A stretch of 64,000 nucleotides of DNA from Candidatus Daviesbacteria bacterium RIFCSPLOWO2_01_FULL_39_23 (GTDB lineage Bacteria > Patescibacteriota > Microgenomatia > Daviesbacterales > UBA10151): NCBI GenBank assembly GCA_001776935.1, contig MFDN01000015.1:102578-166577 (forward strand), given 5' to 3'. The position numbers and the translations under genes were made by a program. Shown here piece by piece: positions 2,904 through 59,151 of this stretch (positions are counted from its first letter, which is position 1; each line of letters starts with the position of its first letter). The notes beneath the pieces were generated by a model, which was not told the DNA's origin, searched no databases, and worked only from the letters and a program-made list of their open reading frames with translations.

Positions 2904-3868
2904 AGAAAATAATTTGGTTAGCTATAATCGTTGTATTAATATTTTTTTTGGCAATGGGGTGGTGGAATAGGCAACTTTCTTTTGTTTCTTCAGATAAATC
3001 CGCCAAAGTATTTGTAATCGCAAAAGGAGCTGGGGTTTCGGAAATTGCCAAAAAGCTCAAAAGTGAAGGACTTATTAAATCAGAACTTGTTTTTAAAATC
3101 TATGTTAAACAAAATAACTTAACAAATAAACTTCAGGCAGGCTCGCATAAGCTTTCTCCTTCAATGACTGCGCAGGAAATACTCAAAACTTTGCAGAAAG
3201 GCAGTGAGGACAGCTGGATAACTTTGATTGAGGGCTGGCGGATAGAAGAAATGGCAACCGAGATAAATTCCAAATTCCAAATCCCAAATTCAAAATTTTT
3301 GGAACTGGCAAAAGAGGGATATATGTTTCCCGATACCTACCTTTTTCCTAAAGAAAGCACAGAAGAGCAAATAGTAAAAAAACTAAGAGAAACTTTTAAT
3401 ATAAGATACACAGATGAGATAAAAGCGAAAATAAAGAAATTGGGTTTAACAGAAGAAGAGGGGGTAATTTTGGCATCCATAGTAGAAAGAGAAGCCCGTT
3501 CTGATGGGGTAAGGCAAATGGTGGCCTCGATTCTTTTAAAAAGATTTAAAATCGGAATGGGTTTGAATGCGGATGCAACAGTTCAATATGCTTTGGTTCC
3601 AAAGGGGTCGAAAAATCCGCCAGCCGGCGGATGGTGGAAAAGACACTTGTCCAGAGAGGATCTTAAAATAGATTCCTCATATAATACTTATATTCACAGA
3701 GGTTTGCCTCCGGCACCGATTGCAAATCCGGGGGTTTCATCATTAAAAGCAGTAGCAGAGGCTGATTCTTCCACTCCTTATCTTTATTATTACCATGATT
3801 CAAAAGGAAATTCTTATTATGGTAAAACTTTAGAAGAGCATAATCAAAATATAGCTAGTTATCCATAA
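2900..3868 (+). CDS. mltG: endolytic murein transglycosylase MltG (YceG-like)
   Basis: N-terminal TM followed by the YceG-like signature SYNTYIHRGLPPAPIANPG. The 4-bp overlap with ruvX indicates coupling. Confidence 0.85.
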   Translation: MKKIIWLAIIVVLIFFLAMGWWNRQLSFVSSDKSAKVFVIAKGAGVSEIAKKLKSEGLIKSELVFKIYVKQNNLTNKLQAGSHKLSPSMTAQEILKTLQKGSEDSWITLIEGWRIEEMATEINSKFQIPNSKFLELAKEGYMFPDTYLFPKESTEEQIVKKLRETFNIRYTDEIKAKIKKLGLTEEEGVILASIVEREARSDGVRQMVASILLKRFKIGMGLNADATVQYALVPKGSKNPPAGGWWKRHLSREDLKIDSSYNTYIHRGLPPAPIANPGVSSLKAVAEADSSTPYLYYYHDSKGNSYYGKTLEEHNQNIASYP

Positions 3869-15311: not shown

Positions 15312-15782
15312 ATGCCGACAATTAATCAATTGGTGCGAAAAGGCAGACACAAGATTACCAAAAAGATCAAAGCTACAGCTTTGCGCCGCGGTTTTAATGC
15401 CAAAGACAGAAGGTATACCCAAGATTTTAATCCGCAAAAGCGGGGAGTGGTTACTTTGGTGAAAACTATGACTCCAAAAAAACCAAATTCCGCACTTAGA
15501 AAAGTAGCCAGAGTCAGGCTTTCCAACAGAACTGAAGTAACGGCCTATATTCAAGGCGAGGGTCACTCTCTAGCAGAGCACGGAATAGTATTGGTGCGGG
15601 GTGGAAGGGTTAAAGATTTGCCCGGAGTTAAGTATCATTTAGTCAGGGGAAAATATGATTTAGCAGGAGTAGTTAACAGAAAACAAGGCAGATCAAGATA
15701 TGGTACCAAAAGAGGCGGAGGCGGTCCTGCTCCGAAAGCAGCAGCAAAACCGCAAGCAGCACCGGTTGGAGGAGGAGCATGA
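15312..15782 (+). CDS. rpsL: 30S ribosomal protein S12 with a Gly/Ala/Pro-rich C-terminal extension
   Basis: [12 protein letters not shown] with a conserved core, plus about 30 extra C-terminal residues [22 protein letters not shown]. Confidence 0.95.
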
Positions 15783-16255
15783 GAAGTAAAAAAGCACCAA
15801 AAAATCTTTTATCTCCTGATCCAATTTTTGGATCAAGACTGCTTACCCGTTTTATAAATAAAGTAATGGAAGATGGGAAGAAATCCATTGCTCAAAAATT
15901 GGTTTATCAGGCATTGGAAGAAATAAAAGAACAGTCCAAAGAGGAGCCTTTGGTTGTGTTCGAAAAAGCTATTAATAACGTTGCGCCAAAAATGGAAGTT
16001 AGACCCCGCCGCGTTGGGGGAGCTTCATATCAGGTTCCTGTTGAAGTAAGGGGAGACAGAAAAGAAGCCTTAGCGATCAGATGGATTCTTGCAGGCGCCA
16101 GATCCAAGTCTAATAGCCAGTATCATTCGTTTGCTAAAAAGCTGGCGGCAGAACTTATGGATGCAGCCAATAACGCCGGTATTGCCATCAAGAAAAAAGA
16201 AGATGTGCAAAAAGCAGCTGCAGCCAATAGGGCCTTCTCTCACTTCCGCTGGTAA
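15779..16255 (+). CDS. rpsG: 30S ribosomal protein S7
   Basis: Canonical S7 sequence. Overlaps the rpsL stop. Confidence 0.95.
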
Positions 16256-16270
16256 CCATCTCTTTTCCCT

Positions 16271-16371
16271 GTCATCCTGAGGCGATTGGCCGAAGGATCT
16301 CTGAACTTGTTTCAGTTGCATTAATGTAGCTTATATTCATAAGAGATTCTTCAGCTTTGCTTCAGAATGAC
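16271..16371. repeat. nested-palindromic repeat element, copy B, running from GTCATCCTGAGG through GAAGGATCTCTGAACTTGTTTCAG and AGAGATTCTTCAG to CTTCAGAATGAC
   Basis: Same architecture as copies A and E. Lies immediately 3' of rpsG and abuts the GIY-YIG gene. Confidence 0.8.
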
Positions 16372-16373
16372 AA

Positions 16374-16667
16374 TTAGGGGTTAGATAGATCTTTGAATTC
16401 AGGATTAATTGTTTTTATTAAGTCCATTTTCTTTCTTCTTGTCCAGCCTTTAATTTTCTTCTCTGCCGCTATTGCCTCATTAATAGCTGAAAACTCCTGA
16501 TAATAGATTAATTTATTTAACTTATATTTGGATGTAAAAGAAGATATGGCTTTGAATGAGTGCTCAGAAATTCTTCTTTCCAGATTATTTGTTACTCCAA
16601 CATATAAGTTGCTTGATTTGTTAGTCAGGATATATACAAAATAGAAGATGACTAAATTGTATCTCAA
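16374..16667 (-). CDS. GIY-YIG nuclease family protein (UPF0213/YhbQ-like, 97 aa)
   Basis: VYILTNKSSNLYVGVTNNLERRISEH matches GIY-(10)-YIG with catalytic Arg and Glu. Confidence 0.85.
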   Translation of the reverse strand: MRYNLVIFYFVYILTNKSSNLYVGVTNNLERRISEHSFKAISSFTSKYKLNKLIYYQEFSAINEAIAAEKKIKGWTRRKKMDLIKTINPEFKDLSNP

Positions 16668-16674
16668 ATGAATT

Positions 16675-16711
16675 GAGAGATCCTTCGTCGACTCTGTCTC
16701 CTCAGGATGAC
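16675..16711. repeat. half-copy (C) of the palindromic element: AGAGATCCTTCG...CTCAGGATGAC
   Basis: Matches the right-half pattern of copies A, B and E. It forms the right terminal inverted repeat of the GIY-YIG cassette. Confidence 0.7.
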
Positions 16712-17086
16712 AAAAAATAGTTAAAGCATCTTAAATGGCAGCCGGAATGGAAATATCTGTTGAAGTGGTATGGTAATATATAATAACTATGGCTGAAAGA
16801 GATATTGGGAAAGGGCCGTTAGAGAGGATAATAGGGAAAGATCTTGGTGGGTTTGATGTTCCAGATAAATTAGAGTCGGCTTGCAGGATGGATTCATCTG
16901 AGTTGGAAATTTTAGCAGGAGCGCAGCGCCTGCCTGATCCCGCTGATAGTCCGGATTTAACACTAACTTCCAGGCAAATTGCACATAAAAGAACCAGAAA
17001 TGCTGTGCCACCTTTGAGATTAGTGCCATATTGGCGCCATTAATTGATTTGACTTTTAGGATCGAAGAAGTATAATATTGACAGTT

Positions 17087-17114
17087 GCCTCCCGGAGAAT
17101 GAGGGAGGCTTTTT
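17087..17114 (+). terminator. Rho-independent terminator-like hairpin GCCTCCC-ggagaatga-GGGAGGC followed by a T5 run
   Basis: 7-bp GC-rich stem followed by TTTTT. It closes the unexplained 16713-17077 segment. Confidence 0.6.
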
Positions 17115-17122
17115 GGATAAAT

Positions 17123-17350
17123 ATGGATGATAAATTAAGACAAGAAAAATTAAAGATGTGGAAGGCTAATTTAGCTGATCTGGAAGAGCAGTTAAAAATT
17201 ATTGCGCAAAAAAAAGGCGCTGCTGCTGCAGAGGGAGATTTATCTGAAAATGCGGCTTATTCTATGGCTATTGAAGATGCAGAGACAACCAGAGTAAGAA
17301 TTGGGGAAGTGAAAAAGATAATAAGGGATTTAGAGAAAGGAAGCAAATAA
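17123..17350 (+). CDS. stand-alone GreA/GreB N-terminal coiled-coil domain protein (about 75 aa) with no C-terminal FKBP-like domain
   Basis: EGDLSENAAYSMAIEDAETTRVRIGEVKKII matches the Gre-factor coiled-coil tip motif GDLKENAEY. The ORF track's earlier start at 17078 would run through the terminator hairpin. Confidence 0.6.
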   Translation: MDDKLRQEKLKMWKANLADLEEQLKIIAQKKGAAAAEGDLSENAAYSMAIEDAETTRVRIGEVKKIIRDLEKGSK

Positions 17351-17470
17351 TTTTCAAGAATCAATTCTCAATTTTCAATCAAATCTCAATGTGACAATTT
17401 TCAAACATTGAAAATTAAGCAATTGAAAATTCATTGTAAATTGTAAACTGAAAATTGTAAATTTCTTATT

Positions 17471-19609
17471 ATGGCTATACAAAAAACCAAAAGAGATTTT
17501 CCGCTGGATAGGATCCGTAACATTGGTATTATTGCTCACATTGATGCCGGAAAAACCACCACCACTGAGCGGATTTTGTTTTATACCGGAAAAACTTACA
17601 AAATCGGCAATATTGACGAAGGAACTACTGTTACTGACTGGATGGAGCAGGAGCGCGAGCGCGGGATCACCATTGTCTCAGCGGCCATCACAGCTTTTTG
17701 GACTGTTAAAAAAGGTCAATTTGAAGGTGAAGAAATGAGAATCAATTTGATTGATACTCCGGGCCATGTTGATTTTACTGCAGAAGTAGAACGATCTTTA
17801 AGAGTTTTGGATGGGGCAGTAATTGTTTTGGATTCCTCTTCCGGCGTACAGTCTCAAACAGAAACAGTTTGGAGACAAGCGAATAAATATAATGTGCCTT
17901 TAATTGCTTTCTCTAATAAGATGGATGTGGTAGGCGCAGATTTTGTTGCTACTATCCAAAGCGCCCGGGATAGACTTGGGGCCAACGCTATTGCTTACAA
18001 TCTGCCGATAGGCAGGGAGAATGATTTTAAAGGGGTGGTCGATTTATTAACTGAAAAAGCCATAATTTGGGAAGGTGATGAAACAGGTGCTAAGTTTCAT
18101 GAAACAGAGATACCGGCTGATATGATTGATGCGGTTAAGGTTGCCCGGGAAAAATTAGTAGAAGAAATCTCCGGTACTGACGATGTATTGATGGAAAAAT
18201 ATTTAGGCGGAGAGGCAATTACGATTGAAGAATTAAAAATAGCTTTAAGAAAAGCTGTGATTGCCAATAAAATTGTGCCTGTCTTTGCGGGCTCCTCCCT
18301 TAGGAATAAAGGTGTCCAACCAATGTTGGATGCGGTTGTTGAATATTTGCCATCGCCTCAGGATATCTTTACAGTAACCGGTATAAACCCGAAAACAGGT
18401 GAAGCAGAAGAAAGAAAAGGTGAATCCAGCGCGCCTTTGGCTGCTTTGGCTTTTAAAATTCAGGTTGATCCGCATGTAGGAAAATTAACCTATATCAGAG
18501 TTTATTCAGGCACTTTAAAGAGTGGTTCTTATGTTTACAATGTGACCAAGCAACTCAGGGAAAGAGTCGGCAGACTGCTTTTGATGCATGCTAATGACAG
18601 GGAAGAGATTGATGAGGCATTTGCAGGAGAAATAGTGGCAGCAGTAGGTTTGAAGGATACTATTACCGGCAATACACTTTGTGATGAAAGCGCTCCAATT
18701 ATTTTAGAATCTATAAGTTTTCCGGATCCGGTAATTTCCCTGGCAATTGAACCTAAGACAAAGAGCGATCAGGAAAAATTAGGTTATGCGCTGCAAAGAC
18801 TGGCTGAGGAAGATCCGACTTTCAGGGTAAAATCCGATCCTGAAACCGGGCAAACTATTATTGCCGGGATGGGTGAGCTGCAGCTTGAAATTTTGGTTGA
18901 CCGGATGAAAAGAGAGTTTAAGCTGGAAGCGAATGTGGGACAGCCGCAGGTGGCTTACAAAGAAACAATTACTAAAATTGCAGAAGGTGAAGGAAAATAT
19001 ATCAGGCAGACAGGGGGCCGGGGCCAATACGGACATTGTTTACTGCGGATCGAACCTTTGCCGCGCGGAACCGGCAGGGAGTTTGTGTCGGAAATTGTGG
19101 GCGGCGCCATCCCCAGAGAATTTATTTCACCGATTGAAAAAGGTGTTATTGAAAAAGAAGACACAGGTATTTTGGCAGGTTATCCTGTAACTGATATTAA
19201 AGTGGCAGTATATGACGGGTCGTTCCATGATGTTGACTCTTCCGAGGTAGCATTTAAGATTGCTGCATCTTTGGGGCTTTCTGAGGCAGCTAAAAAAGCA
19301 GATATGATTTTGCTAGAACCTATTATGAAAGTGGAAGTTACTACCCCGGATGAGTTTTTGGGAGAAATTATTGGCGATCTTTCTTCAAAAAGAGCGCAAA
19401 TTCTTTCTTCTGAAACCCGCGGAAATGCCAGGGTTGTGGTAGCTTTGGTGCCTTTGGCAGAAATGCACGGTTATGCAACAGCTATAAGGAGCATGTCTCA
19501 AGGAAGAGCCACATATTATATGGAAGCAGATCATTATGAAACCGTTCCTCAAAACGTTACTCAAAAGATTATAGAATCCTCAGGCTTCACAGGACGCGTT
19601 GAGCATTAA
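17471..19609 (+). CDS. fusA: translation elongation factor G
   Basis: G domain [15 protein letters not shown] and DTPGHVDF, with full domain II-V conservation. Confidence 0.97.
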
Positions 19610-19617
19610 TCATCTAT

Positions 19618-19720
19618 CGTCATTGCGGGGAATTTTTATCTTTCTTCTTCCGTCATTCCGAACTTGTTTCGGAATCTCTTTTGGAATACTAGAGATCCTG
19701 AACTAAATTCAGGATGACGG
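19618..19720. repeat. degenerate palindromic element copy D, reading CGTCATTGCGGGG ... CGTCATTCCGAACTTGTTTCGGAATCTC ... AGAGATCCTGAACTAAATTCAGGATGACGG
   Basis: Shares the GTCAT-CCGA, CTGAACTTGTTTC and TCAGGATGAC motifs with copies B and E. Sits between the fusA stop and the second GIY-YIG gene. Confidence 0.65.
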
Positions 19721-19721
19721 T

Positions 19722-20009
19722 TTAAAGTAAGGAATCATGCAGATCGTTAAAGTCCGGATTATTTCTTTTAATCAAGTTAATTTTCCATTCTCTATGCCAA
19801 TTTTTTAGCTGCTTTTCTCTTTTGATAGCTTCAATAATATCTTCATAGATTTCATAGTAAACAAGTTTGTTTACGTTATATTTGGAAGTAAAACCGGAGA
19901 CCACTTTCATTTTGTGTTGATAGATTCGTTTAATTAAGTTATCAGTTACCCCAATATAGAGAACGGTATTTATCTCATTCGTAAGAATGTAAACATAGGA
20001 ATATCTCAT
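19722..20009 (-). CDS. GIY-YIG nuclease family protein (95 aa), second copy
   Basis: YVYILTNEINTVLYIGVTDNLIKRIYQHK. Paralogous to 16374-16667. Confidence 0.85.
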   Translation of the reverse strand: MRYSYVYILTNEINTVLYIGVTDNLIKRIYQHKMKVVSGFTSKYNVNKLVYYEIYEDIIEAIKREKQLKNWHREWKINLIKRNNPDFNDLHDSLL

Positions 20010-20020
20010 ACCTATATTGT

Positions 20021-20062
20021 AGAGATTGCTTCCCCGGGATCAAGTCCGGAGTCGTAATGACG
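20021..20062. repeat. degenerate right-half-like element D': AGAGATTGCTTC ... GGAGTCGTAATGACG
   Basis: Resembles the right half of copy F (AGAGATTGCTACGCTAATCGCTCGCAATGAC). Flanks the second GIY-YIG gene on its 5' side. Confidence 0.5.
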
Positions 20063-20137
20063 TTTTTAGCCTCAGACTTCACGGGCCGTGTTAAACATTG
20101 ACTTGACAATTAATTGTGACTCCTCCATCATAAATGT

Positions 20138-20359
20138 ATGAGCAAAATTTTGGAAATTATTGTTTCGCTAGGATTAATAGCATTTGGTTTAAGTTGTTTT
20201 TTAAATCCTAAATTTTATAAAGAGTTAGTAAAAGCGATAAATGCAGGTAAAGGTCTGAGGACCACAATTACCCCACAAACTACCCAGATAGGAAAAGGGG
20301 TAGGAATCATAGCAATTATTATTGGTACCATTATATTTCTTATTACACTTTCTAACTAG
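20138..20359 (+). CDS. small two-TM membrane protein, hypothetical
   Basis: 73 aa with two hydrophobic helices. No homology recognised. Confidence 0.4.
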   Translation: MSKILEIIVSLGLIAFGLSCFLNPKFYKELVKAINAGKGLRTTITPQTTQIGKGVGIIAIIIGTIIFLITLSN

Positions 20360-20411: not shown

Positions 20412-21482
20412 ATGGAGAGATTAAGGATTGCCGTTGTGCCTGGAGGTGGCGCTTTTGGAACAGCTTTATCAGTACCTCTTTCAGCTAATGGTCATGAAGT
20501 TACTCTTATATTTCGGGATAAAGGAAAAGCTCGGGTATTTGGTGAGACGCGCATGGTCGAGAGACTCTCGGGCATATTGATACCGGAAGAAAATGAGAAA
20601 AGCGGAGGCAGAATTGGTTTCAGTGCTGATGCAGAAAAAACAGTTAAAAATGCTGATGTGGTGATTATCGCTGTTCCTACCCCTTTTATGCTTCCTGCTT
20701 ACAGAGAATCGGTAATGCCTTTTAAAAAAGAAGAAACGCCGGTTATATCCGGAGCAAAAGGACTGGCAAGAATTGAGGGTAAATACCTGCGTCCTTCAGA
20801 AATAATCTCATTGACAGATCCTAAAGTTGCAAGACGTTTAATTGTTTTATCCGGTCCAAATTTAGCCCACGAGATTGCCCGGGGATTATTTTTTGTATCG
20901 GTTGCTGCATCGGAAGATACAAAACTGGCAGAGTATGTAGCTCATGATTTATTTGGATTGAACCCTTTCTCTCGAATATATGCTTCTGATGATGTTGCAG
21001 GAGTTGAGTTAGGAGGAGCGTTTAAAAATGTTATTGCCATAGCAGCAGGAGTTTGCGATGGCAGGCATTATGGAGAAAATGCCCGGGCAGCGTTAGTTCA
21101 GAGAGGCCAGGAAGAAATGATCCGCCTGGGGATTAGATTGGGAGGGCGGGATGAGACCTTAAGAGGGGTTGTTGGAAGCGATTTATGGATGACTTGTGTA
21201 AGTGAAGCCAGTAGGAATCATGAGTATGGGGTGGCTATAAGTCACGGAGAGGATCCTGTAGAAGTTTTAGCCAAGTTTGCAATGAATAAAAAAACAGTGG
21301 AAGGGTATACTACCACTAAGGTAGTTTGGGAATTGGTTCAGCGACTTGGGATAAAAGCACCGCTAACAGAGGCAGCCTATTCGGTACTTTTCTTAGGGGG
21401 TAGTATAGATGATGCCATTAAAGGATTGCTGGCACGAGAACGTGTTTATGAAAATGGCCAACCTTTAAATGGTAATAAATAA
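20412..21482 (+). CDS. gpsA: NAD(P)H-dependent glycerol-3-phosphate dehydrogenase
   Basis: N-terminal Rossmann VVPGGGAFGTALS and the GpsA central and C-terminal domains (GAFKNVIAIAAG). Confidence 0.85.
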   Translation: MERLRIAVVPGGGAFGTALSVPLSANGHEVTLIFRDKGKARVFGETRMVERLSGILIPEENEKSGGRIGFSADAEKTVKNADVVIIAVPTPFMLPAYRESVMPFKKEETPVISGAKGLARIEGKYLRPSEIISLTDPKVARRLIVLSGPNLAHEIARGLFFVSVAASEDTKLAEYVAHDLFGLNPFSRIYASDDVAGVELGGAFKNVIAIAAGVCDGRHYGENARAALVQRGQEEMIRLGIRLGGRDETLRGVVGSDLWMTCVSEASRNHEYGVAISHGEDPVEVLAKFAMNKKTVEGYTTTKVVWELVQRLGIKAPLTEAAYSVLFLGGSIDDAIKGLLARERVYENGQPLNGNK

Positions 21483-21652
21483 GATAATGCTCAATGTAAA
21501 TTTAGCCTCTTGCATTCTTGGCAGGTTTATTGTATATTTTATTTACCAGCTTGACAGAGGCTGGATTTTAATGTCTTAATTGTGATTATTGCATAAATCT
21601 AGATTTTGTTTTAAACTATTCACTAATCACTTAAGACTAATAACTAACTAAA

Positions 21653-22837
21653 ATGGCAGACGTAAAAAAATTTGATAGAAGCAAACCGCACGTTAACGTT
21701 GGAACCATGGGTCATGTTGACCACGGTAAAACAACCTTAACTGCTGCAATCACCAAAGTATTGGCCGGCAAAGGCTTGGCTGAAGCGCGATCGGTTGATC
21801 AAATCGATAACGCTCCGGAAGAAAAAGCCCGCGGTATCACCATTAATATTTCTCATCAGGAATACGAAACAGAAAAAAGACATTACGCTCACATCGATAT
21901 GCCGGGTCACGCTGATTACATCAAAAACATGATCACCGGTGCCGCACAAACAGACGGCGCTATTTTGGTGGTATCTGCACCGGATGGTCCGATGCCACAA
22001 ACCAGAGAACATCTTTTATTAGCCAGACAAGTGGGAGTTCCGGCAATCGTTGTTTATCTTAATAAATGCGATATGGTTGATGACCCGGAGCTTTTGGATT
22101 TAGTAGAAGAAGAAGTGCGGGACTTACTTAAAAAATATGAGTATGATGCAAATTCTCCTATAATCCGCGGCAGCGCTAAAAAAGCTCTGGAAGGTGATGC
22201 TGAGGCAGTTAAATCCATTGAAGAGTTGATGAATAAAGTAGATGAGTGGATTCCAACTCCGGTTAGGGATACAGACAAGCCGTTCCTGATGGCTGTGGAA
22301 GATGTTTTCTCCATCAAGGGTAGAGGAACTGTGGTAACCGGAAGAATAGAAAGAGGCAAGGTTAAGGTTAACGAAGAAATAGAAATTGTCGGTATCAGGC
22401 CTACTAAAAAAAGCGTTGTTACCGGAATTGAAATGTTTCACAAAATGCTTGATGAAGGTCAGGCCGGAGATAATGCCGGAATTTTGCTCCGGGGTATTGA
22501 AAAAGATGATGTTGAGCGCGGACAGGTTCTTGCCAAGCCGGGTTCAATTACTCCTCATTCGGAGTTTGATGCCGAAGTTTATATATTAAGCAAAGAAGAA
22601 GGTGGAAGACACACCCCATTTTTTAAAGGCTACAGACCGCAATTCTACGTTAGAACCACAGATGTGACCGGTGAAGTGACGCTTCCGGAAGGTGTTGAAA
22701 TGGCTATGCCGGGAGATACAGTTAAGGTTAAGGGAAAACTGATTACTCCGGTTGCTATGGAAGAAGGTTTAAGGTTTGCAGTCAGAGAAGGCGGTAAGAC
22801 TGTTGGAGCCGGAGTGATTACTAAAATTATCGCCTAA
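21653..22837 (+). CDS. tuf: translation elongation factor Tu
   Basis: [41 protein letters not shown] and the rest of the canonical EF-Tu sequence. Confidence 0.98.
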
Positions 22838-22930: not shown

Positions 22931-23239
22931 ATGCCAAGAGGACGTATTCGTGTTAAATTAAAAAGTTATGACCACAGGGTACTGGATAACACCTGTGAAT
23001 CCCTATTGGATACAGCTCTCCGAACAGGCGCCAAAATAGCCGGTCCTGTGCCCCTTCCTACAAAAACAGAAAGAATTACAGTTTTAACTTCTCCTCACAC
23101 AGACAAAGATAGCAGAGAAGCCTTTGAAATAAAGACCCACAAAAGAATGATTGATATTATAGAGCCTACCCAAAAAACCATAGATTCCCTGATGCACCTT
23201 GAGATCCCAGCTGGAGTTGATATAGAAGTTAAAATGTAA
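22931..23239 (+). CDS. rpsJ: 30S ribosomal protein S10
   Basis: [19 protein letters not shown] is canonical S10. Confidence 0.95.
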
Positions 23240-42369: not shown

Positions 42370-42387
42370 AATTTCTCCGTAATTGCG

Positions 42388-42457
42388 AGGAGTCTTACGA
42401 CGAAGCAATCTTGAGTAATAATTAATAGAGATTGCTACGCTAATCGCTCGCAATGAC
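42388..42457. repeat. palindromic element copy F. The right half is intact (AGAGATTGCTACGCTAATCGCTCGCAATGAC) and the left half is degenerate
   Basis: The right half differs from copy E (AGAGATTCTTCGCTAATCGCTCAGAATGAC) at only 3 positions. Confidence 0.65.
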
Positions 42458-42469
42458 AATTAAAAGATT

Positions 42470-45323: not shown

Positions 45324-45457
45324 AATAGTTCTAGAGAATCAGAAAGAGTGGATTTATCTATGAAAAAATTAATTCTCAAAACCAAGTCAGACTTGGTCAA
45401 AAAATTAATACTCCCTCTAAGCTTCGAGTAATCGGAGTCTTTTCTGATTCTGTTAAT

Positions 45458-45547
45458 GTCATCCTGAACATAGTGAAGGATCTCTGAACTTGTTTCAGAT
45501 GGATCTAGAATAAATCTAGAGATTCTTCGCTAATCGCTCAGAATGAC
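45458..45547. repeat. nested-palindromic repeat element copy E (90 bp), reading GTCATCCTGAAC ... GAAGGATCTCTGAACTTGTTTCAG ... AGAGATTCTTCGCTAATCGCTCAGAATGAC
   Basis: Full copy. It shares 24 consecutive nt (GAAGGATCTCTGAACTTGTTTCAG) with copy B. Confidence 0.8.
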
Positions 45548-45560
45548 CAGAGAGAATATT

Positions 45561-52680: not shown

Positions 52681-54614
52681 CTTACTTTATAAATACTATA
52701 ATTTCCGCTGTCCAATATTATTGGATATTGATTTAAGAAAGCTCTATTAATATACATATCTTGCGGATCGCTAGATTCCACGACTATGTAATCGATACTA
52801 TTTTTTTCAATTAATGGTTTGGCATTATCAGCACCTGCAAATATCTCGTTGATATCTTTCTCCCGGTCTTGATAATTGATCCCATGTACCCAAAGAAGGC
52901 CCGGATAGCCCATCATTATGGATCTGCCAGCCAAATTACTGACAGGAGAATTATGTAGTTTATATGTTAGAAAAATACTGTCTCTTGGGGTAATTTCTTT
53001 AAGTTTTTCGCCTGTTTCTACTGCCTCTTTGGAAAAAAGAAGATATGTAACATTTATTTCCCTCCATATGGATAGTAAAGCTGATGAAATCATAGTGATT
53101 ATGATGAGTACTGTAGCAATTTTAAAAGACAAGTATTTGAATTTAAATAAATATGTAAAAAAAGAGGCTGCGCTAACAGAAAAAAACAGTCCTGCCCAGA
53201 AAAGAAATTTTACATTATCCCAATTATAAGGTGAAAATAGAGCAAGATTGATTATTACTAATAAAATTAAAGCATTAACTTGTAATATCTTTACCCATTT
53301 AGTGGCTAGCGGGAATATCAGAATAATTAAAGACAACGGGATAAAAAGATATGTATTTTTAAACCAAAACCATATTATGGATTCGTTCTCGCTTTTCATC
53401 CACCAAAGATGAGGTTTAAAAAAACTTTCCGATCCGCTGATATGATTTAAAAATACAGGAATATGGGGCAATGCAAATATTACTGTCAAAAACATTACAA
53501 AGATATAATTTCTCAGTTGGATTTTCCAGTATTGTCTGGCTAGGGTTAACAATCCTATAAGAGGAAGTGTGATTGCCATCGCCAATACTGTGTGGGTATG
53601 CATTAGAGGCATTAATGATATTAAAAGTGCAGCCAGGACTAAATCAAAAATACTGTGATGTCTGTCGGTATTTTTAAAAAATAGCAGTCGTAGAATAATA
53701 ATTCCTGCCGGAATTCCGAAAAGCAAAGACCTTTCAGGAATTATCATCCTGGAAAGAAAATTACCCCATTGGATATTTTGTTCAAACAGATGGGAATACT
53801 CTTTGAGCATGGTAGGGTTTAGTAAAGCCTGGATAATTGATGTTAGATTGAATGAATAATCGCTTAAGAAAAATATAAATCCTAATCCTCCGTTAAAAAA
53901 GTAAAGAAGCACAGCAAAGAAGCTTTTCAGCCCATCCCTTGTTAAATTATAAGTAAAGTCATAAATTAAACCGATTAGACTTAAGGAAAGCATAAGACCG
54001 GGTATGATAATCGACAGACGTAGCGACCAGCCTTCAAAAACTAAAATTGCTGAAAAAAAATTTATTAAATAAGGATATGCAAGTTGAGCATTTGCATAGA
54101 ATGGATTATCCGGAGGAAATTTGTAACCGTAAGCGATATGGGAAATTATACTTAAATGAAATGGCAGATCACCATATGTACTTTCACCTGTTTGTAAATT
54201 TCCTTTGACTGAAGGAATAATATGATGATTAAAAAGTGTAAAAAGTATCAGTCCGATTACGATTGTTAAAATAAATAATAATTTTTCTTTAAAAAGGTTT
54301 TGTAAACAAGGCAAGAAATTTAAATTAATTTTATATTTTAAAAAATAAAATATTTCAAATAATATAACTATAAAGTGGGCTATATAAATACCCGTGGGAA
54401 ATGAAAAGATGATGCTGCTAAAATAATTGATTGCAGTAAATAAAATAATTCCCAAAGAAACAATATAAGAAATTTCCGAAAATTTTGGTATGGTAATTGA
54501 CAACCTTTTTGTTACAATTACTCCCAATATTAAGCTTATAAAAAGGCTGAAAAACGGAAGGATAAATGACATTAATAAATAATACCAGATTAGTAGTAAT
54601 TTTAGGTCCGACAT
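52677..54614 (-). CDS. large polytopic membrane protein (645 aa) with a C-terminal soluble domain. Putative oligosaccharyl/glycosyl-transferase-like
   Basis: About 13 TM helices followed by a 130-aa C-terminal periplasmic-type domain. The 4-bp overlap with the downstream gene suggests an operon of three membrane proteins. Confidence 0.5.
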   Translation of the reverse strand: MSDLKLLLIWYYLLMSFILPFFSLFISLILGVIVTKRLSITIPKFSEISYIVSLGIILFTAINYFSSIIFSFPTGIYIAHFIVILFEIFYFLKYKINLNFLPCLQNLFKEKLLFILTIVIGLILFTLFNHHIIPSVKGNLQTGESTYGDLPFHLSIISHIAYGYKFPPDNPFYANAQLAYPYLINFFSAILVFEGWSLRLSIIIPGLMLSLSLIGLIYDFTYNLTRDGLKSFFAVLLYFFNGGLGFIFFLSDYSFNLTSIIQALLNPTMLKEYSHLFEQNIQWGNFLSRMIIPERSLLFGIPAGIIILRLLFFKNTDRHHSIFDLVLAALLISLMPLMHTHTVLAMAITLPLIGLLTLARQYWKIQLRNYIFVMFLTVIFALPHIPVFLNHISGSESFFKPHLWWMKSENESIIWFWFKNTYLFIPLSLIILIFPLATKWVKILQVNALILLVIINLALFSPYNWDNVKFLFWAGLFFSVSAASFFTYLFKFKYLSFKIATVLIIITMISSALLSIWREINVTYLLFSKEAVETGEKLKEITPRDSIFLTYKLHNSPVSNLAGRSIMMGYPGLLWVHGINYQDREKDINEIFAGADNAKPLIEKNSIDYIVVESSDPQDMYINRAFLNQYPIILDSGNYSIYKVR

Positions 54615-55570
54615 CGACAGGTAAAACAGATTTGGCCTTAAACCTTGCTAAAAAATTTAACGGAGAATTATTATCTTGCGACTCAAGGCAGGTTTATCGG
54701 GGGCTGGATATTGGGACTGGAAAATATCCAAATTTAAATATCAAATATCAAATATCAAATATCAAAAAGAGGAAAGCGCATTGGGAAATAGAGGGGGTTA
54801 AAATCTCGATGTATGATGTGGCTGATCCAAAAAAACAATATACGGTTTATGATTTCATAAAAGACGCAACCCCAATCATTGATGATATTTTAAAAAGAGG
54901 AAAACTTCCTATTATAGTAGGGGGTACTGGGTTGTACTTAAAAGCTTTACTTGAGGGTATTCCTAATTTGGGAATCCCGGTTTCGGAGAAATTAAGGATG
55001 CAGCTGCAAAAACTTTCTAAAGATGAGCTGCAGGGAAAATTACAACAAATAGCTCCTGATAGATGGGAGCGTATGAATTACTCGGACAGACAAAACCCCA
55101 GAAGGTTAATCAGGGCAATAGAGATTGTCATTCAGCTCACTGTAAACAAGCTCAGGACTCAGGATGACAAAGGTAGAAGTCAAAATGACACTTACGTTTT
55201 AAAAATCGGATTAACTGCACCGCGCGATATTTTATATCAAAGAATCGATAAGCGGGTTATCATCAGGGTTAATCAGGGGATGATTGATGAAGCACAGCAG
55301 TTACATAAGAGGGGCCTGAGTTTAAAAAGAATGAGACAATTGGGGCTTGAGTATGGAGTTTTAGCTGATTTTCTGGAGGGCAAAATTAAAAGTAAGGAGG
55401 AATTGATTAAAGTATTGCAGGGCAAAATTCATGGTTTTGCCAGAAGACAGCTTACTTGGTTTAAGAAAGAGAAAAATGTATCTTGGGTTGATACAGAAGG
55501 TAGAAATTATTTCCAAAAAGTAGAGAATTTGATTTGTAAATGGTATGATAATCCTATAAATGTCGCATAA
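54566..55570 (+). CDS. miaA: tRNA dimethylallyltransferase with a lineage-specific insert that contains a perfect 7-bp x4 tandem repeat
   Basis: P-loop GPTSTGKTDLA and SCDSRQVYRGLDIGTGK, with a conserved C-terminal half. An insert NLNIKYQISNIKKRKAHWEIEGVKIS is present. Confidence 0.9.
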   Translation: MTLINNTRLVVILGPTSTGKTDLALNLAKKFNGELLSCDSRQVYRGLDIGTGKYPNLNIKYQISNIKKRKAHWEIEGVKISMYDVADPKKQYTVYDFIKDATPIIDDILKRGKLPIIVGGTGLYLKALLEGIPNLGIPVSEKLRMQLQKLSKDELQGKLQQIAPDRWERMNYSDRQNPRRLIRAIEIVIQLTVNKLRTQDDKGRSQNDTYVLKIGLTAPRDILYQRIDKRVIIRVNQGMIDEAQQLHKRGLSLKRMRQLGLEYGVLADFLEGKIKSKEELIKVLQGKIHGFARRQLTWFKKEKNVSWVDTEGRNYFQKVENLICKWYDNPINVA

Positions 55571-56540: not shown

Positions 56541-56838
56541 GGGGCCTGGGAAGAAGGATAATCGGTCCGCCTTTGGCGGACAGGAAAGTCCAGACAGCAA
56601 AAAGCAGGGTGATCTGCGTAAGCAGGTAGCCGTAAGGCCTAGTTAGAGTAACAGAAACGATCTGGGTGACGCCAGCTGAAACGACCAAGTGACTGGGTAT
56701 CCCGCCTTAAGGCGGGAGGACAATCCTCCCCGCTGCAATCCTAGAATCAACAGAGCCGCTTGCTCAATTGTTGTAATCAGGAGCATTAGATAAATGATTA
56801 TCTTGAAACAGAATCTGGCTTACTATCTTCCTAGGCAA
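56541..56838 (+). ncRNA. rnpB: RNase P RNA, bacterial type A, reduced in size (about 300 nt)
   Basis: P4 5' strand AGGAAAGUCCAGAC and P4 3' strand ACAGAAUCUGGCUUAC. P2 is GAUAAUC/GAUUAUC. P3 hairpin GUCCGCC-uuu-GGCGGAC. P1 is GCCUGGGAAGA/UCUUCCUAGGC. P5 region GCAGGGUG. A TATAAT lies at 56531-56536. Confidence 0.75.
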
Positions 56839-58701: not shown

Positions 58702-59022
58702 CTAAAATATTCTTAAATTCAGAAGATTGTTTTTTAAGAGAAAAAATAATGAAATTTGCGCTCCGATAGCCATAGAGGAAAGTATTAAAATTTTTGCCAA
58801 GTCGTGGCGTAGGTAAGCGAAATCGGTTCGGAACGACTCGGAATGACTCGGTGCGCCAGAGTATTGGTGTGTTAGAATTCCAGTTCCGGTTAACTGATTC
58901 TCCGATTTAACTGGTTCTCCGATTCTTTCTGAGTTTTCTGAATTCTTCCCATAGACTTGTCTGCGCAGTATTTGTAAGCGTTTTTCCAGGTCTGAAAGTT
59001 TTGCAGTTTGTTGGTATGCCAT
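58702..59022 (-). CDS. hypothetical small protein with a C-terminal hydrophobic helix. The coding status is uncertain
   Basis: The ORF contains low-complexity direct repeats (a 17-bp x2 repeat at 58890-58923). No homology recognised. Confidence 0.25.
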   Translation of the reverse strand: MAYQQTAKLSDLEKRLQILRRQVYGKNSENSERIGEPVKSENQLTGTGILTHQYSGAPSHSESFRTDFAYLRHDLAKILILSSMAIGAQISLFFLLKNNLLNLRIF

Positions 59023-59151
59023 GCTAAGTTTTAGATCGAGCGTGCGAAATGAGCCTAGCACGAACAGTTGAGGCTGTCAAGCACCAGTTGTATTGTCGAA
59101 TATTGTAGTTGACAATATTTGCATTCATAAAGTATATTGAAAGAGTAACTT

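Follow-up and report, generated by a model that had tools for sequence, protein, structure and literature searches.

Gene Organization of the str Region

The str region of Candidatus Daviesbacteria bacterium RIFCSPLOWO2_01_FULL_39_23, a member of the candidate phyla radiation (CPR), lies in a 64,000-nucleotide stretch of contig MFDN01000015.1 (positions 102,578 to 166,577; hereafter the window, in whose own numbering features are located). It comprises ribosomal protein and elongation factor genes interspersed with accessory DNA, including two cassettes in which a small GIY-YIG nuclease gene is enclosed by hairpin-forming repeats. As read from the open reading frame (ORF) map and Pfam, the gene order includes (i) rpoB-rpoC-rpsL-rpsG; (ii) cassette 1, an 84-residue ORF, and greN; (iii) fusA; (iv) cassette 2, a 73-residue membrane ORF, and gpsA; and (v) tuf and rpsJ. 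An earlier note on this DNA had described the same order, with a GIY-YIG gene bracketed by palindromic units at both sites, and the inverted-repeat search and the reading of the flanks bear out the second description as the ORF map and Pfam bear out the first.

The conserved genes occupy the plus strand. rpsL (15312-15782; Pfam Ribosom_S12_S23, E 8.5e-34) and rpsG (15779-16255; Ribosomal_S7, E 4.8e-58) end the rpoB-rpoC-rpsL-rpsG transcription unit; fusA (17471-19609) encodes a 712-residue EF-G in which Pfam detects every EF-G domain; and tuf (21653-22837), an ORF encoding a 394-residue EF-Tu 95-96% identical in relatives, is followed in the ORF map by rpsJ (22931-23239). The operon had been called universally conserved, which claims too much: a comparison of 160 fusA loci taken from across the bacteria gave fusA-tuf gaps of more than 300 nt in 43 of 117 and rpsG-fusA gaps of that size in 20 of 145. 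The relatives compared below are loci designated by L-numbers, found by fusA scans of genomes and metagenomes and by context look-ups of GreA-N proteins; the fusA gene of L082 and that of L173 are each 93% identical to the fusA of the window, that of L001 is 78% identical, and close relatives span 86-93%.

Three Predicted Transcription Units with Probable Permissive Boundaries

The str region of Daviesbacteria is predicted to comprise three promoter-led units, namely (i) rpoB-rpoC-rpsL-rpsG, (ii) greN-fusA, and (iii) tuf-rpsJ onward, because the promoters and leader hairpins of greN and tuf are conserved even in the compact cluster of L173 (rpsG-92 nt-greN-fusA-160 nt-tuf). The greN-fusA unit displays a promoter-like site at 17049-17076 (plus strand; TTGACT-16-TATAAT, 11/12 consensus), within a block, TTTGACTTTTAGGATCAAA..TATAAT, conserved in L082, L173, L180, and L001. 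Between this site and greN lies a leader hairpin at 17087-17114 (plus strand; GCCTCCC..GGGAGGC, then a T-run), kept with changed stem bases in L082, L172, L173, L001, and L180. The corresponding elements of tuf, at 21510-21564 (plus strand), are a promoter-like site (TTGCAT-17-TATATT) and the leader hairpin CCAGCTTGACAGAGGCTGG (CCAGC..GCTGG), again with a T-run, and the roughly 100 nt upstream of tuf are conserved in all five genomes compared (the window, L082, L171, L172, and the compact L173). Before the start codons of both greN and tuf, the succession of promoter, GC-rich hairpin, and T-run is attenuator-like, the stems varying among relatives while the pairing is kept.

The partner of fusA in the second unit, greN (17123-17350, plus strand), encodes a 75-residue GreA N-terminal coiled-coil mini-protein (PF03449, GreA_GreB_N, E 4e-8; also the N-terminal part of TIGR01462). 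The gene stands directly upstream of fusA in all seven relatives checked (L001, L082, L171, L172, L173, L179, and L180), and its 302 homologues, nearly all of 73-75 residues, are from Daviesbacteria wherever the source is named. These comparisons make greN a constant companion of fusA, specific to the Daviesbacteria clade, and its earlier listing among the accessory DNA is to be dropped. The protein retains the GDLSENAAY tip motif and lacks the RNA-polymerase-binding domain, and the gene often abuts or overlaps the fusA start (L173:8001-8225, L001:5255-5485).

The boundaries just upstream of the greN and tuf promoters appear, from the same alignments, to be permissive slots that hold different accessory DNA in each lineage. 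Before greN, L171 and L082 carry a small ORF, and L172 and L179 a Gp49/HTH toxin-antitoxin pair plus a small ORF. Between fusA and tuf, L171 displays a 78-residue ORF, gpsA, and UbiA; L172 has HTH_17/PIN_3 and other ORFs before tuf; and L082 comprises a 115-residue ORF, a zinc-ribbon-like ORF, a DUF433/DUF5615 pair, a membrane ORF, and gpsA. L001 and L083 contain multi-kilobase inserts. The GIY-YIG gene and the repeat motif are absent from the slots of L173, L171, L172, L179, L082, L001, and L083, and no gene for a site-specific recombinase is present in the insert of the window or in those of L082, L083, and L001.

Taken as a model, the proposal of the earlier note that one mechanism struck twice would have a site-specific GIY-YIG homing element recently enter a still undivided and co-transcribed rpsL-rpsG-fusA-tuf operon on two occasions, once at the 3′ end of rpsG and once at that of fusA. 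The note added that the same interruption in all relatives, devoid of repeats, would point instead to an ancient arrangement of the lineage. The synteny comparison largely found that interruption: relatives with neither the GIY-YIG gene nor the repeat are interrupted at the same two junctions, and the downstream promoters persist in the compact L173 as well. In Daviesbacteria, the division of the str cluster is accordingly an older property, not the result of a GIY-YIG insertion, and the cassettes occupy it. More generally, an operon regarded as universally conserved may already be several units in a given clade, and accessory DNA at the unit boundaries then needs no special mechanism, a caution for the reading of synteny.

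Two further observations concern the contents of such slots. gpsA, accessory at this position, occurs between fusA and tuf in the window (20412-21482, plus strand; N- and C-terminal Pfam domains NAD_Gly3P_dh; promoter-like site from 20375, TTGACT-17-TATAAT, 11/12), in L082 (9924-11012), and in L171 (10735-11784), and is absent in L172 and L173. The gene of the window is 32% identical to that of L082 and 51% to that of L171 while the flanking fusA and tuf are 86-96% identical, which suggests replacement by transfer rather than vertical descent. A third slot lies between rpsJ and rplC, where L172 (13569-14253) and L173 (12117-12807) encode Sigma70_r4 and DUF3276 proteins and the window has only 190 nt.

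Ssn-Type Cassettes and Their Hairpin Repeats

The so-called Ssn nucleases, a family corresponding to the CDD model cd10448, are single-domain GIY-YIG proteins of about 94 residues that bind an oriented hairpin repeat and cut the adjacent single-stranded DNA (ssDNA) (Chenal et al. 2025, Nat Commun; PMC11893778). The definition of the family asks for sequence-specific cleavage that spares double-stranded DNA and RNA. The repeat, which combines a conserved 5′ CGTCAT, a hairpin of 20-50 nt, and a 3′ ATCY tail, is named NTS in Neisseria (CGTCATTCCCGCGMAVGCGGGAATCYRG) and SRM in general, and most of the homologous genes are flanked by it (PMC11893778). The two GIY-YIG proteins of the window, GIY1 (97 residues) and GIY2 (95 residues), contain PF01541 and no other credible domain. 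GIY2 is 52.9% identical over residues 6-90 (E 5e-20) to the product of an ssnA locus of N. gonorrhoeae (L170; NZ_CP119142.1, 1881119-1882573, on a 2.17-Mb chromosome labeled as a plasmid in PLSDB), which lies within the tblastn E < 1e-10 by which Ssn homologues were recognized (PMC11893778). That locus is flanked by the canonical NTS CGTCATTCCCGC..GCGGGAATC; the nearest ATG is out of frame with its ssnA-like ORF, which may be frameshifted or begin elsewhere. In an alignment of GIY1, GIY2, their close homologues, and the Neisseria sequence, the catalytic positions Tyr, Tyr, Gly, Arg, His, Glu, and Asn are invariant.

Both genes are flanked on both sides by repeat units that comprise YGTCAT, a stem-loop, and an ATCTC tail. 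Six of the eight units fold as ssDNA in the same register, and in both cassettes the outer units are degenerate. Across the 64 kb of the window, 13 copies of the core motif GTCATYSYGR are present where 0.73 would be expected, and none of 100 shuffles contains more than 3. A strict hairpin scan was discarded as a repeat finder, since it recovered only two perfect units and returned 5 hits against a random mean of 2.6, and the evidence for the repeats is therefore the core-motif count together with the alignments. On these comparisons the genes are assigned to the Ssn family, and the repeats are classed as SRM-like by architecture, not by the published definition.

Cassette 1 (16270-16712, minus strand) comprises an outer hairpin unit, the short palindrome CTGAACTTGTTTCAG, an extra inner unit, the ssn-like gene, and a second outer hairpin unit, and its ends form a 16-nt inverted repeat (16270-16285 and 16697-16712, 94% complementary). 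The unit TGTCATCCTGAGGCGATTGGCCGAAGGATCTC (16270-16301, plus strand) is predicted to fold as ssDNA into four unpaired nucleotides, a stem, and a CTC tail, in the register of the other units; its inverted-repeat partner at the opposite end (16677-16712, minus strand) is degenerate and makes a poor ssDNA hairpin. The inner unit, TGTCATTCTGAAGCAAAGCTGAAGAATCTC on the minus strand (16341-16372), also displays a hairpin fold. The gene itself (16374-16667, minus strand) encodes GIY1 with a full PF01541 domain (residues 9-81, E 8e-18) and has 885 homologues at E ≤ 1e-10. It lacks an ATG, the longest ORF beginning at a TTG six codons upstream of the start in homologues of 90-92 residues, and it is absent from the gene calls in the ENA annotation of the same contig.

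Cassette 2 (19618-20062, minus strand) comprises, in the sense of the gene, (i) SRM-a, (ii) the ssn gene, (iii) SRM-b in forward orientation, (iv) SRM-c in reverse orientation, and (v) a partial SRM-a′. The partial unit lies at 19618-19632. The unit CGTCATTCCGAACTTGTTTCGGAATCTC (19651-19678, plus strand; ssDNA hairpin z -3.8) shares CGTCATTCC...GGAATC with the Neisseria NTS and contains, at 19655-19675, a terminator-like structure directly 3′ of fusA, whereas the unit CGTCATCCTGAATTTAGTTCAGGATCTC is read on the minus strand (19692-19719; ssDNA hairpin z -5.4). The outer unit, CGTCATTACGAC...GGGGAAGCAATCTC on the minus strand (20022-20062), corresponds in the alignment to CGTCATTGCGAG...GCAATCT, which precedes the gene in two other Daviesbacteria genomes, L162 and L166, where CGTCATCCTGAATTTAGTTCAGGATCTC is kept as well. 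The gene (19722-20009, minus strand) encodes GIY2 (PF01541, residues 4-78, E 3e-18), which has more than 5000 homologues and no match in a PDB sequence search.

Repeats of the same kind also occur in the window without a nuclease gene. Solo inverted pairs of SRM-like units, resembling miniature elements, are found at 2355-2495, between the sortase gene and ruvX; at 42376-42458, between an acylphosphatase gene and an Exo_endo_phos-family gene; and at 45457-45548, between recX and rny. Single core matches lie in or next to long ORFs at 55120-55170 (ORF 54566-55570) and 58820-58850 (minus-strand ORF 58702-59061).

Distribution of the Cassettes

The closest homologue of GIY1 (79-81% identical) is found in a second lineage of Daviesbacteria, L174, immediately past rpsG and antisense to it, and the next closest (77%) within the atp operon of L178; cassette 1 is collinear over its length with both of these cassettes, except for the inner unit 16341-16372, which they lack. 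Cassette 1 is absent from L082, L171, L172, and L173, whose rpsG and rpoC are 78-84% and 85-87% identical to those of the window. The closest homologues of GIY2 (73-75%) follow topA in L162 and stand between sufC and pflD in L166. These two cassettes display the layout of cassette 2, with one unit upstream and a forward and a reverse unit downstream of the gene, and the three align from CGTCAT to ATGACG with unrelated flanks. At the fusA site, cassette 2 is absent from all close relatives (fusA 86-93% identical). In L162, the topA frame reads through the SRM-like unit CGTCATTGCGAGCGAAGCGAAGCAATCT (L162:4960-5004) and ends at a TGA overlapping the ssn start codon, so that the repeat encodes the last residues of topoisomerase I there.

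The modules thus behave like mobile DNA, because cassettes built alike turn up in unrelated genomic settings: those of the cassette 2 type can be aligned over their full extent across three such settings, and those of the cassette 1 type lie after rpsG in two lineages and within the atp operon. For cassettes that would be mobile, or at least gained and lost, this distribution is useful comparative evidence. GIY1 and GIY2 are only 51-52% identical and their repeat variants differ, which argues for two independent arrivals of different subfamilies; of the proposal that the same mechanism struck twice, it stands that the same kind of element occupies both junctions. Recency fares similarly, since close relatives lack both cassettes, as expected of recent insertion, but cassette 1 may be older, the L174 homologue (81%) sharing its position behind rpsG and its orientation.

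The distribution also bears on the homing element considered above. Both cassettes begin 9-15 nt after a stop codon, and in L174 too the gene closest to GIY1 follows rpsG immediately, in antisense orientation, as preference for one site would have it. Compared site by site, the copies give a mixed picture, GIY1-type copies occurring after rpsG (window and L174) but also in the atp operon (L178), and GIY2-type copies after fusA, after topA, and between sufC and pflD, so that the closest GIY2 homologues are not beside fusA. The architecture of the proteins also differs. A free-standing GIY-YIG homing endonuclease comprises an N-terminal GIY-YIG domain and a C-terminal DNA-binding domain, about 200-270 residues in total, whereas GIY1 and GIY2 are single domains of 95-97 residues with no DNA-binding domain, in which TIGR01453 covers residues 4-55 only, at 18-22 bits against a cut-off of 56. 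Moreover, Neisseria SsnA, to which GIY2 is 53% identical, is reported not to cut double-stranded DNA (PMC11893778). Together with the relatives that are split at the same junctions without a GIY-YIG gene, these features make a homing element that twice disrupted an intact operon quite unlikely.

The cassettes could also be old, domesticated residents whose hairpins serve as terminators or insulators at unit boundaries, with nuclease and repeats perhaps restricting how incoming ssDNA recombines around essential genes, as proposed for the NTS clusters of Neisseria. Such a role would suit the presence of cassette 1 at the same site in two lineages, with a divergence close to that of housekeeping genes, the terminator-like unit 19651-19678 directly after fusA, and the conservation of all catalytic positions in both genes; in Neisseria, NTS/SsnA modulates transformation and NTS repeats cluster around particular genes (PMC11893778). 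Long residence is harder to reconcile with the four relatives that lack cassette 1 despite similar rpsG and rpoC, with the lack of cassette 2 in every genome with fusA 86-93% identical, with the degenerate outer units of both cassettes, with a GIY1 that needs a TTG start and went uncalled in one annotation, and with the recurrence of the same modules in unrelated contexts. On balance, domestication is a possible but improbable account.

Displaced 3′ Ends of fusA

The least expected result is the recurrence of displaced 3′ ends of fusA. In the window, a decayed copy of the fusA 3′ end lies at 20069-20101 (plus strand), overlooked by the earlier note, and cassette 2 takes up all the DNA from the fusA stop codon to this copy; its 33 nt correspond in frame to the last ten fusA codons and the stop, and now read ASDFTGRVKH and stop. 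The remnant agrees with the fusA tail at 25 of 33 nt, whereas nothing else on either strand of the window (128 kb) agrees at more than 20 of 33, and it is the top hit when the tails of all 140 long ORFs of the window are scanned against their downstream DNA.

Analogous remnants occur in four other genomes beside different cargo, namely (i) L082 (9362-9427; 54/66 nt), with 1.2 kb that contain a toxin-antitoxin pair; (ii) L083 (8049-8085; 31/37 nt), with a 115-residue membrane ORF; (iii) L001 (12285-12336; 42/52 nt), with 4.7 kb that contain a histidine kinase; and (iv) the more distant Patescibacteria genome L028 (9265-9337; 70/73 nt), with 146 nt of non-coding DNA. The remnants of the relatives have scores of 30-62; across 60,704 comparisons, the background rises no higher than 27. 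None is present in L171, L172, or L173, no fusA-like remnant was found beside the cassette-2-type copies of L162 and L166, and a search for an rpsG 3′-end remnant to the right of cassette 1 gave nothing above background.

In our reading of the alignments, the 11 coding differences of the L082 remnant are all at third positions and synonymous, and those of the L028 remnant, clustered in the last six codons, are synonymous as well. Purely synonymous divergence implies that both copies were once the ends of functional fusA genes, and hence that foreign DNA carrying its own fusA tail would have recombined in and displaced the resident tail. The pattern suggests, as far as alignments can tell, repeated import of foreign DNA anchored in fusA. 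No homology was found among the small genes downstream of the remnants across genomes, so these genes do not distinguish one ancestral duplication from repeated events.

The position of cassette 2 between two copies of the fusA 3′ end is what an element carrying a replacement gene end should leave, and in this respect it favors the homing model; the remnants that accompany toxin-antitoxin, membrane-protein, and kinase cargo tell against it. Since the source is a metagenome-assembled genome, and strain mixtures can yield diverged short repeats, an assembly chimera between strains might be suspected, especially for the duplicated fusA end. The identical arrangement, however, is displayed by 23 of 23 public contigs read that contain this exact fusA (the 23 longest-contig index blocks out of 47, with 21 places collapsed as similar) and is therefore not a one-off assembly error; with analogous remnants in independent assemblies of other species as well, a chimera is very improbable.

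A possibly comparable feature flanks the cassette-1-type module in the atp operon of L178, where a stretch on the minus strand (3331-3370) matches the rpsG 3′ end at 21 of 30 nt. This stretch is now the C-terminus of a 242-residue ORF in another frame and may be a carried-along rpsG tail. Of 300 random 30-mers, 8 reach 21 matches anywhere in the locus, and we estimate the chance at this position at about 1e-4 for a match noticed post hoc. Like the paired fusA ends, an rpsG-like tail beside the module could be counted in favor of homing.

Proposed Mechanism and Comparison with Known Systems

The reading that we consider probable is that of three promoter-led units with permissive slots, each slot holding an independently arrived Ssn-type cassette, and cassette 2 having come through recombination anchored in fusA. 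Each slot would then contain one GIY-YIG gene of 95-97 residues with its cognate hairpin repeats (YGTCAT, stem-loop, ATCTC), a low-GC equivalent of the Neisseria ssnA with its NTS/SRM. By analogy with the Neisseria and Wolbachia homologues, for which this was shown (PMC11893778), the repeat would fold into an ssDNA hairpin that the nuclease binds, cutting the strand just 5′ of it. The repeat-gene-repeat module and the solo repeats might spread in the manner of the insertion sequence (IS) family IS200/IS605 and the repetitive extragenic palindrome (REP) system, and/or the module might cut incoming ssDNA during transformation. Cassette 2 would have entered on DNA recombined via the fusA anchor, which supplied the replacement 3′ end and displaced the resident one.

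Several points weigh against this reading. The published SRM pattern HGTCWYN(0-2)YYVSBRHN(0-5)WNVSBRGN(0-2)RNCYNB has 0 matches on both strands of the window (random mean 0.17), because the stems are AT-richer or interrupted by internal loops. The reading of the flanks revealed no short direct repeat, and thus no target-site duplication, at either cassette boundary. Nuclease activity, transposition, and excision are presumed for the GIY1 and GIY2 cassettes, and the promoters and leader hairpins are predictions from consensus matches and conservation rather than mapped transcripts. Cassette 1 may be an old resident and not a mobile arrival, since its divergence from the L174 copy (79-81% identity for GIY1) is about that of rpsG (77%) and rpoC (85%) between the window and L174, which fits vertical descent with losses elsewhere. 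Finally, the remnant of the window could predate cassette 2 and be unrelated to its arrival, because the remnants of L082, L083, and L001 flank cargo with neither Ssn gene nor repeat. Cassette 2 may have arrived with a replacement fusA tail or may later have landed between two existing copies.

A bolder proposal makes the Ssn cassettes autonomous mobile elements of CPR bacteria that take the 3′ ends of essential genes, rpsG and fusA among them, as insertion sites and carry a replacement gene end, the fusA 3′ end being, separately, a recurrent anchor for the import of foreign DNA in Daviesbacteria. We regard it as doubtful. If it were true, the fusA tail beside cassette 2 and the rpsG-like tail in the atp operon would be traces of a route of insertion, so far undescribed in bacteria, that replaces gene ends.

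Among known systems, the cassettes most resemble Ssn with NTS/SRM, sharing (i) a single-domain GIY-YIG protein of about 94 residues, (ii) flanking oriented hairpins running from CGTCAT to ATCY in an IS-like repeat-gene-repeat layout, and (iii) additional solo repeats in intergenic DNA elsewhere in the genome (PMC11893778). They differ in the CPR host with 39% GC, in the AT-richer stems, many of them with internal or longer loops, and in the presence of two diverged paralogues with mixed repeat variants 3 kb apart, known here from sequence. We class them as CPR additions to the Ssn/SRM kind. IS200/IS605 and the REP-associated tyrosine transposase (RAYT) with REP or bacterial interspersed mosaic elements (BIME), an analogy named in the same work (PMC11893778), also comprise a small nuclease gene, flanking hairpin repeats, and solo intergenic copies, lack target-site duplications, and have ssDNA hairpins as presumed substrate; the window differs by the GIY-YIG fold in place of an HUH/Y1 transposase, and transposition would be presumed by this analogy. 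Compared with classical IS and miniature inverted-repeat transposable elements (MITEs), both cassettes display inverted ends (16 nt, 94%, in cassette 1; CGTCAT...ATGACG in cassette 2), but no short direct repeat is visible at their boundaries.

The free-standing GIY-YIG homing endonucleases I-TevI and Seg and certain mitochondrial ORFs share with the window a GIY-YIG gene beside a highly conserved gene. Mobile mitochondrial GIY-YIG ORFs insert at the 3′ end of a gene together with a duplicated C-terminal coding segment, as in the Allomyces atp6 case, and the window likewise presents a functional fusA 3′ end, the element, and then a displaced, diverged copy. It departs from them in the 95-residue protein devoid of a DNA-binding domain, in nearest homologues located away from fusA, and in remnants that also accompany nuclease-free cargo. 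Islands at the 3′ ends of conserved genes, with tRNA/tmRNA-type attachment (att) sites, show a duplicated 3′ end on both sides of variable cargo, the upstream copy keeping the gene intact, as do the fusA inserts; in the latter, however, no integrase is found in or near the inserts examined, and the repeats, of 30-73 nt, have diverged mostly at synonymous sites.

Multigene insertions between the operons of the ribosomal supercluster have been described (Brandis et al. 2019, PMC6735719), and the accessory genes of the window similarly stand at the boundaries of rpoBC-str-S10 transcription units that are themselves intact. Here, the boundaries rpsG|fusA and fusA|tuf lie within a stretch that in E. 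coli forms one str operon, and greN has joined one of the units. For the Ssn nucleases, whose role outside Neisseria and whose mobility were left open in 2025, the latter raised only as a hypothesis (PMC11893778), the locus adds comparative evidence drawn from CPR bacteria that are uncultured: genomes with fusA 86-93% identical differ at one site in having or lacking the whole module, which also recurs intact in unrelated contexts and has repeats that spread solo. The recurrent displaced fusA ends in turn suggest how streamlined, probably naturally competent bacteria gain foreign genes beside conserved anchors.

Further Features of the Window

The 365-bp stretch between cassette 1 and the greN promoter (16713-17077), described earlier as unexplained, indeed has no Pfam, NCBIfam, or Rfam match, but with moderate confidence it is probably a gene for a fast-evolving small protein. 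It contains an ORF of 84 residues (orf84, 16789-17043, plus strand), and small ORFs of 66-68 residues, several of which start with MTVEN, occupy the same position in L171, L172, L179, and L180. Against the profile of those ORFs, orf84 gives an hhalign probability of 82% (E 1e-5), and BLASTP against the L172 ORF gives E 2e-5; an HMMER search of 1.84 billion protein representatives matched only orf84 itself, and the ORF of L082 at this position has no detectable relation to it. A structured RNA was considered and rejected, as the segment has no Rfam match at gathering or permissive thresholds and a fold z of +0.3 (+0.55 for the L082 counterpart), and ARAGORN detects no tRNA or tmRNA.

Between greN and fusA, an AT-rich imperfect palindrome of 120 nt (17351-17470, no strand assigned) comprises 56-nt inverted-repeat arms with an RNA hairpin z of -3.2. 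It is common to L179 only, greN abutting fusA in L082, L171, L172, L173, and L001, and it resembles one more short insertion of MITE type, here within the greN-fusA unit.

The accessory 73-residue membrane ORF downstream of cassette 2 (20138-20359, plus strand) has no Pfam or NCBIfam family match and no homologue found at the same position in relatives; it is preceded by a promoter-like site from 20103 (plus strand; TTGACA-17-CATCAT, 10/12). Elsewhere in the window, a bacterial RNase P class A RNA is located at 56546-56838 (112.7 bits); it falls some 75 nt short of the 367 positions in the Rfam model.

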